Assembly: GCF_026626685.1 (NCBI RefSeq)
Contig: NZ_JAPNJX010000001.1
Span: 204,752-268,751, forward strand
Source: Nannocystis sp. SCPEA4
GTDB lineage: Bacteria > Myxococcota_A > Polyangia > Nannocystales > Nannocystaceae
Direction: 5' to 3'
DNA length: 64,000 bases
Under the pieces are notes generated by a model. That model saw nothing but the letters and a program-made list of their open reading frames with translations, was not told the DNA's origin and searched no databases. The position numbers and the translations under genes are program-made. Of the stretch, positions 52,041 to 54,479 are shown piece by piece (the stretch's first letter is position 1; each line of letters begins with the position of its first letter).

Positions 52041-54479
52041 CCAGGTGCGCCAGAACCACCGCTCGATCCGGCGCACGCCGGCGGTCCAGACCCGGCGGTT
52101 GACCTTGCCGGCCTTCCAGCGCATGCGCGCCTGCTCGCCGGCCTTGCCGCGGATCCACTCGTGGGCGAAGCCCAGGTTGAAGTAGAACGTGCGCGGGCGC
52201 ATCGGCAGGATGCCGCCGTTGATGTCGTCGGAGCGGGTGAACCACTGCTCGTTGAGCAAGTTCTTGACGCCGACGGTCGCCTCGAGCCGCCAGCCCTGCG
52301 GCAGGGCGGTGCGGTAGCCCAGCCACGCGCCCATCAGGGTGTAGGCCGGCATCGTCCCGACCTCGCCGGTCGCGCGCGGCGCGTCCCAGTTGGCGTAGTC
52401 GGTGTACTGCTTGTCGACCCACTCGATCTTGGTGCCGACGCGCAGGCCGAACGGCGCCTCGTAGCTGGCCGAGCCCCACACCTCGTGCGCCGGGTACCAC
52501 GGCATGCGGTTGCCGGTGTAGAGGTCGCGCAGCACGCGGCTGCCGTTGTAGGCGTAGCCGGCGTTGAACTCCAGCCCCTCGACCTTCTCCCACACCTCGC
52601 CGGGCAGCCACTCGACGTCGACCTCGGCGCCGTAGGTGTGGGCCGCCGGGATGACGTCGATCGCGTTCTCGCCCTCGTCGCGCAGGTTGTTGAAGTAGCG
52701 GTACCAGCCGTCGACGGTCGCGTACACCCCGCCGAGCTCCATCAGCTTGACGCCCGCCTCGACCGTGTCGGCCAGCTCGGGCTTGATGAAGCGCAGCGCC
52801 CGGCCCATCGCCTCGCCGGGGTTGATCGGCTGGATCGCCCCCGACAGGTAGCTCGGCGCGCCGAACGAGCGCCCGTAGCCGAGGTAGAGCCCGACGTAAT
52901 CGCCGCCGTACCACAGCGACGCCGCCGGCAGCGGCCCGCCGTAGAACGGCCGCGGGTAGCTCACGCCCTCGAGCACGTTGTAAAAGCTCTGCTTGGTCAG
53001 CTCGAGCCGCACGCCGGCGGTCAGCACCAGCTTGGTGTCGAGCAGGTAGATCTTGTCCTCGAGGTACAGCGAGTAGCCGCCGATCCGGCCGTCGAAGCAG
53101 CGCAGCGCGTTGGGCGAGCCCTCCGGCAGCACCGCGCCGCGCGGGCACACGCGCGCGTCGCCGTCGGCCTGGAGCGGGTCGCCGGGGCGCCCGGGGAACT
53201 CGACGCGGAAGCCGCGGATCCGCGCCGCCTCGAACACCCCGCGCGTGCCGATCGAGATGTCGTGGAAGCCGCCGCGGTGGCGCACGCGGAACGCGTAGCG
53301 CGGCTCGATGCCGACCACGTCGAACGCCCGCGGCTGCACCAACAAGAAGGTCGGCGCCGCGCCGAGGTTGCGGTCCTCGTTGGTCGCCTGGACCACGCGG
53401 CGCAGCGTGTGGCTGTAGAACGCGATCACCTGCAGCTCGTGCTCGGCCTTCGGCGTCCACCGCAGCTTGAGGCTGGTGCCCTCGCGGTGGCCGTTGAAGG
53501 TGTCGAACGGGCGGTTGCTGGAGAATCGATCGTCGGCGTAGGTGGCCGAGTCGAGACCGCCCGGCAGGTTGGTCTTCTCCCAGAACAGGTGCGTGCTCGA
53601 CAGCAGCTCGATGCGCTTGGTCACCGGCACCTGCAGCTTGACGATCCCGCCGTGGCTCTGAAACTCGCTGTGCTCGCGGTACGTCTTGCCGAACCGCGGC
53701 GCGTACTCGACGTACACGCCGACGCCCTTGTGCGTGCCGCCGTACGAGGCCGCCGCGCCGGCGTCGCCGAACTGGTCCGACTGGGCGAACACCGACACCG
53801 TCGGGTTCTTCGGGATCGGGTGCGACACCATGTTGAACACGCCGCCCGACGTCCACGGCCCGAAGCGCACCGACGAGCCGCCGCGCACCGTGTCGACGCG
53901 GGCGATCTGGAACAGCGACAGCGGGAACAGCACCATCGACGGCGCGCCGTACGGGGCCGGCGCCACCGGCACCTCGTCGAGCAGGATCGTCGCCTGCTCC
54001 GACAGCCGCGGGTCGGCGCCGCGGACCGCCAGGTTGAGCTTCGTCGCCGACGTCCCGAGCCCCGACGCGCCCTCGACCGCGCGCACCCCCGGGACCTTGT
54101 CGAGCAGCTCCGCCACCCCGCTGGCGCCCTCGGCCTTGGCGTCGTCGACGTCGACCACCGCGCGCCCGCCCGCGTGGCGGTGGGCGTCGATGCGGGTCGA
54201 GCGGCCGAGCAGGTCGGTCGTCACCTCGATGTCGCGCGACTCGCCCGGCAGCACCTTGGTCCCGGGGGCCAGCGGCGGCTCCTCGGCCTCGGGCGCGGCC
54301 GGGGCGGTGACCGTCGGACTGCCTGTCTCTTCGGGCATGCTCTTCGGAGCAGGCTCCCGAGAGAATGTCCAATCGGACCTGTCCTCCGGAGCAGGCACGT
54401 CCGGAGCCGCGTCCGGCCCGTCGTACGCGCGCGGGTCGGCGGCCAGGAGCAGGGCCAGGCTGTACGCGAACGGCGGCAC
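52026..54479 (-). CDS. TonB-dependent receptor (siderophore/metal-chelate type)
   Basis: 817 aa. Features are a signal peptide, a plug domain (GVAELLDKVPGVRAVEG ... LLDEVPV), a 22-strand barrel-like region, and a C-terminal FYFNLGFAHEW-type motif near the end. Confidence 0.88.
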   Translation of the reverse strand: MPPFAYSLALLLAADPRAYDGPDAAPDVPAPEDRSDWTFSREPAPKSMPEETGSPTVTAPAAPEAEEPPLAPGTKVLPGESRDIEVTTDLLGRSTRIDAHRHAGGRAVVDVDDAKAEGASGVAELLDKVPGVRAVEGASGLGTSATKLNLAVRGADPRLSEQATILLDEVPVAPAPYGAPSMVLFPLSLFQIARVDTVRGGSSVRFGPWTSGGVFNMVSHPIPKNPTVSVFAQSDQFGDAGAAASYGGTHKGVGVYVEYAPRFGKTYREHSEFQSHGGIVKLQVPVTKRIELLSSTHLFWEKTNLPGGLDSATYADDRFSSNRPFDTFNGHREGTSLKLRWTPKAEHELQVIAFYSHTLRRVVQATNEDRNLGAAPTFLLVQPRAFDVVGIEPRYAFRVRHRGGFHDISIGTRGVFEAARIRGFRVEFPGRPGDPLQADGDARVCPRGAVLPEGSPNALRCFDGRIGGYSLYLEDKIYLLDTKLVLTAGVRLELTKQSFYNVLEGVSYPRPFYGGPLPAASLWYGGDYVGLYLGYGRSFGAPSYLSGAIQPINPGEAMGRALRFIKPELADTVEAGVKLMELGGVYATVDGWYRYFNNLRDEGENAIDVIPAAHTYGAEVDVEWLPGEVWEKVEGLEFNAGYAYNGSRVLRDLYTGNRMPWYPAHEVWGSASYEAPFGLRVGTKIEWVDKQYTDYANWDAPRATGEVGTMPAYTLMGAWLGYRTALPQGWRLEATVGVKNLLNEQWFTRSDDINGGILPMRPRTFYFNLGFAHEWIRGKAGEQARMRWKAGKVNRRVWTAGVRRIERWFWRTWGAML
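54317..54400. repeat. 14-bp-phased array, 6 units (84 bp), embedded in the receptor N-terminal extension
   Basis: Cores are CCTG 54322, CATG 54336, CAGG 54350, AATG 54364, CCTG 54378 and CAGG 54392. It encodes ...VPAPEDRSDWTFSREPAPKSMPEETGSP... between the signal peptide and the plug. Confidence 0.8.

Follow-up and report, generated by a model that had tools for sequence, protein, structure and literature searches.

How does a repeat that fills the gaps between genes come to be read as part of a protein, and what becomes of it there? The question is raised by positions 54317-54400 of a 64,000-nucleotide stretch of the Nannocystis sp. SCPEA4 genome (contig NZ_JAPNJX010000001.1; "the window" in what follows), where copies of a 14-bp unit lie inside the gene of a TonB-dependent receptor. 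A preliminary description of the same DNA had noted these units, pointed to copies in other genes, and proposed that the repeat enters or expands in genes in multiples of three units and in this way seeds disordered protein linkers. The reading that we favor, with a probability of roughly 0.7, is that the segment is a degenerate copy of a Nannocystis-specific repeat that was captured in a coding sequence (CDS) and is translated as tolerated linker sequence. Copies of the array lie in pre-existing disordered linkers, after export or transmembrane (TM) signals, between domains and in kinase tails, and are read through in frame; inside CDS the array is frozen in length, whereas the parent arrays between genes turn over rapidly in length and unit number from species to species.

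The parent element can be written as a tandem (GGACATGTCCnnnn)n, with the unit consensus nnGGACATGYCCnn, in which a 10-bp palindrome, GGACATGTCC, alternates with a 4-nt spacer. The consensus and a position weight matrix (PWM) were built from 54 units of the window chosen by the spacing of their CATG cores, and hits to the matrix were then chained in a 14-bp register. Across the window, whose G+C content is ~72%, two CATG tetranucleotides are separated by exactly 14 bp 36 times, compared with about once for neighboring spacings, and by 28 and 42 bp 27 and 17 times, respectively. Chaining yields 31 in-register arrays where 20 shuffles gave 0-1 each (mean ~0.15), and within CDS it yields nine chains where 0.1 are expected from 100 codon shuffles. 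The unit is indeed shared between intergenic DNA and genes, where it lies in frame in linker or disordered segments. Between genes the arrays, mostly of five units, are present in ~13 of the 17 short gaps of the window regardless of the orientation of the flanking genes. They are the chief component of its intergenic DNA, at 5' and 3' gene ends alike and between convergent, divergent and tandem genes. Gene ends can fall inside units, as seen for the apparent starts at 59431 (ATG) and 51985 (ATGAGCATG) and for the stop region of the TonB receptor (52026-52032), so that arrays overlap gene boundaries and can supply start codons. Six cultured Nannocystis species carry ~4 chains per 10 kb and Nannocystis metagenome-assembled genomes (MAGs) carry fewer, while none were found at the orthologous locus of Enhygromyxa, Plesiocystis, other Nannocystaceae and Polyangia; the family is specific to the Nannocystis lineage. 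The arrays have no match in Rfam, and the literature searched held only general prior art on intragenic repeats and no description of a 14-bp repeat family.

That 54317-54400 is a member of this family is evident from both its unit consensus and its strict 14-bp register. Scores at 54317 + 14n are 3.2, 14.4, 3.1, 9.1, 10.3 and 1.7 bits, three strong units and three weak ones whose values are nonetheless reached by just 1-2% of window positions, and the positions directly outside score -16.1 and -8.7; the count of six units, between the N-terminal peptide and the plug, thus stands as first described. The host gene encodes a TonB-dependent receptor in which PF07715 (Plug; residues 106-214) is followed by PF00593 (beta-barrel; residues 306-741), both above the Pfam gathering score. 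Its product is 99% identical to that of Nannocystis radixulma and 87-91% identical to those of five other Nannocystis species (91-92% to the N. punicea and N. pusilla receptors). At most sites the DNA on either side matches the N. radixulma record with 91-99% identity, which makes the source of the window a close relative of that strain. The array is preceded by an N-terminal peptide with a DPRAYxGP motif and followed by the TonB box and plug; SDWTFSR/EPAPK is among the receptor peptides expected if it is translated. Identity of the array with itself is 0.64 at a lag of 42 bp versus 0.41 at a lag of 14 (0.55-0.79 at lag 42 in the other five species), and units 1 and 4 have a common derived sequence, GCCTGCTCCG, such that the array looks like a duplicated 42-bp block.

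The 84-bp block of units is free of gaps in all six species and keeps its position and length. When mapped by its flanks, the segment ranges from 83 to 120 bp because the adjoining low-complexity linker is hypervariable, being full of insertions and deletions and having 0.55 of its sites variable compared with 0.31 in the array. Fractions of variable sites at the three codon positions are 0.29/0.25/0.39 in the array and 0.08/0.04/0.17 in the rest of the gene, and the evolution of the array is near-neutral. Purifying selection on the array as a DNA element was considered and rejected, as at every codon position the array changes faster than the remainder of the gene does; it appears conserved only by comparison with the indel-prone linker next to it. 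One unit (window ~54345-54358) also differs in an unusual way between species: it reads GGGACAGGTCCC in N. bainbridge (L004, ~10090-10103), GGGACCTG(C/T)CCC in RBIL2, punicea, exedens and pusilla, and, in degenerate form, GGG(A/G)GCCTGCTCC in the radixulma pair. The asymmetric core of the N. bainbridge unit is therefore flipped to its reverse complement, as if by a templated or inversion event and not by a set of independent point changes.

Three lines of evidence show that the true start of the receptor gene is not downstream of the array, an outcome that would have spoken against the preliminary interpretation. The DPRAYxGP peptide is in frame in every ortholog examined, down to ~45% identity and with array-free genomes included, the fractions of variable sites in the N-terminal peptide (0.22/0.15/0.38 by codon position) have a coding pattern, and the N. 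punicea and N. pusilla receptor sequences in NCBI start upstream of the array. At the seven clear in-CDS sites of the window, the same codon phase, with high G+C at third codon positions (GC3), is found on both sides of the array, and GC3 collapses within it. A second instructive case is found in an ACP-FAAL-acyltransferase protein, where the PP-binding (ACP) and AMP-binding (FAAL) domains (Pfam; residues 36-84 and 133-536) are joined by a linker that holds an array of four units (42867-42922). The units score 9.5/14.0/6.5/13.9 with negative flanks, and GEGASDMSTSTGPK is among the peptides expected if the protein is translated. The ACP-FAAL fusion is common to hits labelled Acidobacteria, Methylomirabilota/Rokubacteria, Nitrospira and several proteobacterial groups, and the array therefore sits in an old linker. 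The element thus lies within genuine CDS, where it keeps the reading frame.

As 14 and 3 have no common factor, the reading frame shifts from each unit to the next in a cycle of three, which gives the encoded protein a 14-residue period of roughly GHVxxDMSxGT(C/G)Px. The consequences for the DNA were followed in a pooled set consisting of the window and 120 metagenome loci retrieved with GACATGTCCN5GACATGTCC. Where a unit is read as ACA TGT CC (frame c) and so encodes cysteine, the CATG core is kept in only 6 of 24 cases and is CAGG, encoding glycine, in 10 of 24; in frames a and b (GGA CAT GTC or GAC ATG TCC) it is kept in 53 of 82 (Fisher p = 9e-4). Without the ascertained units the corresponding figures are 5/23 and 33/62 (p = 0.013). 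Among perfect in-CDS doublets, 10 of 11 are in the sole Cys-free phase, GHVxxDMS. Overall, CATG cores are retained in 56% of CDS copies versus 79% of intergenic ones, and CAGG or CCTG cores make up 29% in CDS arrays versus 12% in intergenic arrays, an excess that is explained by selection at the amino-acid level. Arrays close to gene starts or within Pro/Ala-rich tails escape the strict CDS classifier, and as the intergenic class hence includes some coding arrays, these contrasts are conservative. In-CDS arrays are thus reshaped by amino-acid selection, CATG being lost preferentially, and mainly to CAGG, in the Cys-encoding frame; the frame-specific loss and the Cys-free phase of the doublets are marks of selection at the amino-acid level and therefore of translation, and in-CDS arrays appear to be translated. 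In locus L137, the space between a sigma-54 activator gene and the gene after it contains a nine-unit array (2787-2912) whose 42-bp period is almost perfect and whose CATG cores, Cys-frame units included, are intact; it lies in the 5' untranslated region or else is a very young N-terminal extension.

Comparison among the six species distinguishes the copies in CDS from those between genes. The array at 42867 is 56 bp in five of them and 55 bp, by flank mapping, in N. pusilla, and is in frame in all six, whereas free intergenic gaps vary (30-267 bp, 82-110 bp and so on), with differing unit numbers; the gap holding the 59369-59438 array is the one that spans 30-267 bp in other Nannocystis species. 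Two arrays at operon junctions are also constant in length across species. Of the TonB linkers, those of the six cultured species and of MAG loci L008 and L015 have units and those of L006, L010 and L013 do not; units are found there only in genomes that carry intergenic arrays. In the two distant MAG loci (L008 10136-10220, L015 10184-10233), the linker has GGACATGTC every 36 bp, a 12-residue repeat, xDMSxGTxxxGx, that corresponds to two units plus 8 bp; its period thus keeps the frame without being divisible by 14. In the metagenomic locus L148, at ~70% amino-acid identity, the ACP-FAAL array can still be recognized, with a 9-bp deletion, and by this measure in-CDS arrays are old. The 15-kb L148 stretch itself is without intergenic arrays yet keeps the degenerate ACP-FAAL array; coding copies may outlast intergenic ones as "fossils".

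The proposal that the repeat seeds linkers did not hold up, as both well-resolved linkers predate the array. The TonB linker has ~75 residues with the array and ~73 in the array-free L006, and the ACP-FAAL linker with the array is only ~5 residues longer than array-free orthologous linkers, from which we conclude that arrays remodel existing linkers and do not create them. We envisage that whatever slippage, duplication or insertion process drives turnover between genes also brings arrays into linkers or enlarges them there, and that selection would then remove variants that break the frame or contain stops. What is filtered would be total length rather than unit number, which is why arrays of 2, 4 and 5-6 units can all occur, and the encoded peptide would be a tolerated passenger and no functional module. 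Several of our own observations weigh against parts of this account. Linkers with arrays are barely longer than those without, so that simple insertion would need compensating deletions or a process of in-situ conversion, and no presence/absence polymorphism of in-CDS arrays was seen among the six species in 22 kb; the seeding step was never observed. The persistence of the ACP-FAAL array in L148 could indicate constraint rather than neutrality, and the location of arrays after signal peptides and TM helices and between domains could reflect function, not tolerance. The 42-bp superperiod is also seen in the L137 array, which is probably non-coding, and can arise partly from shared codon constraints. 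The metagenome sample, finally, is biased in its unit counts, as set out below.

The remaining copies in CDS (see the table) required some revision of what had been described. The block at 33727-33810 in the tail of a Ser/Thr kinase, reported as six units, is real but has five clear units, the sixth being marginal (+2.0 on the sense strand, -2.5 on the + strand). Five supposed triplets in the same tail (32344-32654) turned out to be doublets, in which a first unit of ~5-10 bits is followed by a partial second and the third is absent (-6 to -19), and for which Tandem Repeats Finder (TRF) gives a period of 81; the DRSxGT motif is indeed encoded by repeats, though by doublets and not triplets. 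A further triplet, at 33200-33228, is two units and one partial, and that in the other kinase (11532/11546/11560) shrinks to one clear unit at 11541 with non-significant neighbors (-2.7 and -0.6). The two units noted at 9906/9920 were confirmed, and both are strong. Not previously noticed were the four-unit array at 42867-42922, the doublet at 10572-10599 and a doublet-like match at 40867-40894, the last of which was probably kept or created by protein constraint, with no insertion into a linker. A 42-bp length step in the kinase tail was not seen in its only close ortholog, that of N. pusilla (P0181), which has a block of the same length as the 33727-33810 array; more distant tails are unalignable. 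P0181 is 889 residues long and has an Arg-rich end (…RPFRPRRDARAPVRRRPRRASRTRR…) that resembles the Pro/Ala/Gly tail read out of frame, which suggests a frameshift in the tail relative to the window, either real or from sequencing. Just downstream of the end of the kinase gene is a tRNA gene (31251-31324, + strand; Rfam RF00005, 63.9 bits). Other coding or probably coding tandem repeats in the window are unrelated to the 14-bp unit: 5343-5593 (45 bp, 5.6 copies), 21308-21488 (57 bp, 2.7-2.9 copies, with a 27-bp row covering 21404-21488), 33250-33446 (54/57 bp, in the kinase tail) and 49053-49177 (27/51 bp).

Table. Repeat arrays and associated features of the window (positions are those of the 64,000-nucleotide stretch).
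Position	Strand	Feature	Details
52026-54479	-	TonB-dependent receptor gene	GTG start 7 nt past the stop of the upstream gene; Pfam Plug and beta-barrel
54414-54479	-	N-terminal hydrophobic peptide with DPRAYxGP motif	Same frame as and upstream of the array; conserved in orthologs
54317-54400	-	Six-unit degenerate array in receptor CDS, apparently 2 x 42 bp	Residues 27-55 = DVPAPEDRSDWTFSREPAPKSMPEETGSP
42867-42922	-	Four-unit in-frame array, 56 bp, in PP-binding (ACP) to AMP-binding (FAAL) linker	Encodes SDMSTSTGPKEHVREDLS
33727-33810	-	Five to six units in disordered tail of Ser/Thr kinase 31557-35522(-)	Encodes GASGHVGSDMSRGAGPLGPVPGVMR
33195-33236	-	Two units and one partial in kinase tail	8.6 and 10.4 bits (PWM)
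32339-32662	-	Five two-unit remnants, GGACAGGTCCnCnGGGACAG, in same kinase tail	Encode (T/A)DRSxGT; within a 51-81-bp coding tandem repeat
11541-11554	-	Single clear unit (YMS) after predicted TM helix of kinase 10832-12949(-)	11.0 bits
10572-10599	-	Two units after lipoprotein-type signal peptide of open reading frame (ORF) 8168-10645(-)	Encode RAPQDMSVAP
9901-9928	-	Two strong in-frame units in ORF 8168-10645(-)	13.4 and 14.8; encode WVMSEQTCLP
40867-40894	-	Doublet-like match in conserved PlsC acyltransferase motif ENMPQGPCILAPNH	PWM chain, Pfam
51972-52027		Intergenic four-unit array	Fills the 40-bp gap from the TonB-receptor stop to the next gene's start
38865-38948		Intergenic six-unit array	Between convergent genes
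59369-59438		Intergenic five-unit array	Downstream gene apparently starts (ATG, 59431) in the CATG of the last unit
5164-5247, 8085-8154, 13244-13313, 14214-14283, 38865-38948, 47541-47610, 48458-48527, 59369-59438		Example intergenic arrays	

Of the other ways to account for the in-CDS arrays, the strictest holds that entry into genes or expansion there is restricted to whole multiples of three units, meaning 42 or 84 bp. It would explain the six in-register units of the TonB array, its duplicated look and the sequence shared by units 1 and 4, as well as the evident 42-bp tandem copies in CDS at L097, L123 and L032 and the finding that identity in long in-CDS arrays is higher at lag 42 than at lag 14 or 28 in 5/5 cases, compared with 7/21 for intergenic arrays. 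Yet the ACP-FAAL array, with four units, is in frame in all six species; the CDS arrays of the window have two units in six cases, four in one and six in two, when only 0.1 two-unit arrays would be expected by chance; the kinase "triplets" are doublets and the kinase "six" is five clear units plus a marginal one; and the L008 and L015 linkers repeat at 36 bp rather than 42. Nor do unit counts in the limited metagenome sample favor multiples of three, as strict-CDS arrays of 2, 3, 4, 6, 7 and 10 units number 28, 10, 3, 1, 1 and 1, or 25% multiples of three against 28% for intergenic arrays, in a sample whose ascertainment on a perfect doublet inflates two-unit arrays; the preliminary description had itself listed such an outcome as refuting its proposal. 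The strict rule fails and the model built on it is unlikely. What survives is a weaker form, seen in the 42-bp superperiod of long in-CDS arrays and in the 42-bp tandem copies, and a frame constraint is visible in that length is fixed in CDS and variable between genes. Growth inside genes seems to take place in three-unit steps, entry and survival having no need of whole multiples of three. Could the in-CDS arrays instead be kept as nucleic-acid elements, whether binding sites for the factor that would recognize the intergenic arrays, mRNA structures or Shine-Dalgarno-like pause sites? Their sites are certainly non-random, following the TonB N-terminal peptide, a lipoprotein signal peptide and a TM helix or separating ACP from FAAL, the TonB array is less variable than the linker beside it, and the ACP-FAAL array has persisted to ~70% amino-acid identity. 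However, the palindromic core decays in CDS and does so according to reading frame, which points to constraint at the level of protein and not of DNA or RNA; the TonB array accumulates substitutions faster than third positions elsewhere in the gene and with little codon periodicity; predicted folding, although better than in shuffles, is weaker in CDS arrays (z -0.9 to -2.8) than in the best intergenic ones (z to -6.6); and adjacent units lack compensatory complementarity (z = -0.7). We therefore consider such retention distinctly improbable.

That the arrays might not be coding at all, because starts lie downstream, because long ORFs are artifacts of GC-rich DNA or because adjacent genes share a frame by chance, deserves mention since high-GC genomes do give long spurious ORFs (several overlapping ORFs of >500 residues are present in the window), units contain ATG and some genes appear to start within one (59431, 51985), and the TonB N-terminal peptide has no charged n-region. 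It is very hard to sustain given the conserved in-frame peptide upstream of the TonB array, array-free genomes included, the ACP-FAAL fusion in hits from several phyla, the shared GC3 phase in 7/7 clear cases, a C-terminal motif at the end of the kinase tail that resembles the one in its orthologs, and the purging of Cys codons in one frame, which is difficult to explain without translation. We give equally little credence to the notion that it is the peptide that is selected, as short linear motifs of the DMSxGT or GHV type, with the likeness to intergenic arrays being secondary. DRSxGT and DMSxGT do recur in many Nannocystis-like linkers and tails, but all three reading phases of the one register occur and so there is no single conserved peptide, outside genes the DNA unit is far more frequent, orthologs in genomes without intergenic arrays lack the motifs, and array residues vary freely between species. 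More speculative, and in our estimation doubtful rather than implausible, is an apparently undescribed and still active generator that writes 14-bp palindromic arrays into nearly all intergenic gaps and many disordered linkers, with in-CDS copies retaining a function at the DNA level, for example as sites for a dimeric factor that marks gene or domain boundaries; were it to exist, 14-residue GHVxxDMSxGT(G)Px repeats would form a family across the proteome, and linker sequence would be continually remodeled. An origin by gene fusion or overprinting was rejected for both the TonB and the ACP-FAAL arrays, as both architectures exist in array-free lineages.

The symmetry of the parent units is a separate matter, and one that bears on what they might be. 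The common core variants are just CAGG and CCTG (window, L002-L005, L012, L028-L147), each of which is a single A:T to C:G change in one half-site; the transition variants CGTG and CACG are essentially absent, intergenic arrays included, and a perfect GGACA half-site seems to be preserved at least once in each unit. The doubly substituted form GGGCATGCCC (G3,C8), which would be compatible with pairing, is depleted (8 observed, Fisher p = 0.007). Adjacent units show no excess of complementarity over random unit pairs, and there is no strand asymmetry of the units relative to transcription. An RNA-hairpin model is thus unsupported, with no complementarity between neighbors, covariation within units that is the opposite of pairing, no strand asymmetry and no Rfam match. 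The symmetry of the units favors recognition of a double-stranded palindrome, as by a dimeric binder, or symmetric copying over RNA hairpins.

In-frame intragenic copies of intergenic repeats are already known. The closest analogues are the Rickettsia palindromic elements (RPEs), palindromic repeats found between genes and in many unrelated ORFs, where they are read in frame; common to both systems is an in-frame intragenic peptide that is compatible with the function of the protein (PMC10969869). RPEs, however, are discrete elements of ~150 bp that fall into several families, each of which has a conserved ORF of its own, whereas the Nannocystis arrays consist of tandem 14-bp units with no fixed length or single peptide, are read in three frames in rotation with a 14-residue period, and lie in pre-existing disordered linkers that they do not lengthen. 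In enterobacteria, Delihas described ERIC, RU-1, RU-2 and RU-3 sequences within annotated genes, with frame maintained, and proposed them as a source of new peptide segments (PMC2759123). These are 100-170 bp long, resemble MITEs (transposable elements of the miniature inverted-repeat kind) and have terminal inverted repeats, unlike tandem 14-bp units. We know of no description of tandem 14-bp periodicity, genus-wide gap filling or frame-specific decay for ERIC or RU. Membership in a mobile-element class such as MITEs or RPEs, with discrete elements of ~100-400 bp, does not agree with arrays of 28-140 bp and variable unit number; apart from the palindrome of the unit itself, terminal inverted repeats were not seen, although no search aimed at target-site duplications was made.

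Two other families invite comparison. REP/BIME sequences are short GC-rich palindromes, often clustered, that occupy much of the intergenic DNA on the 5' and 3' sides of genes and are mobilized by RAYT transposases, and the likeness lies in clustered short palindromic units that fill intergenic DNA at both ends of genes. REPs, though, are imperfect palindromes, 20-40 bp long, which act as hairpins, alternate in orientation and are extragenic by definition; the Nannocystis unit is a 10-bp palindrome of the perfect type, set at a rigid 14-bp pitch, without extra complementarity between neighbors and with depletion of pairing double variants. On the features tested, identity with REP/BIME was rejected because a hairpin with maintained pairing is not seen (z = -0.7; G3,C8 depleted; no strand asymmetry). 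The mycobacterial MIRU-VNTR loci are tandem intergenic repeats in operons, with a copy number that varies between strains and with ends that overlap flanking stop and start codons, and several Nannocystis starts and stops are likewise within units. MIRUs are 40-100 bp long, have small ORFs of their own and are not palindromic, and to our knowledge they have not been reported inside protein linkers; the Nannocystis units are 14 bp, palindromic and found inside such linkers. It is the tandem 14-bp form, the rotation of frames, the residence in linkers and the frame-specific decay that set the Nannocystis arrays apart from what is known.

If the reading that we favor is correct, the arrays would be a clear example from bacteria of protein linker sequence recruited from a non-coding tandem repeat, in which the frame-specific purging of Cys codons provides an internal read-out of translation without the need of proteomics. 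The parent intergenic arrays probably pose a more important question than the coding copies. They form a very abundant repeat family in a genus whose 12-13-Mb genomes are mined for natural products. For annotation, the arrays yield a rule for gene callers in Nannocystis, namely that arrays are not always gene boundaries, and they would explain the recurrent DMS, DRS and GHV motifs of Nannocystis linkers, which would otherwise look like protein motifs.

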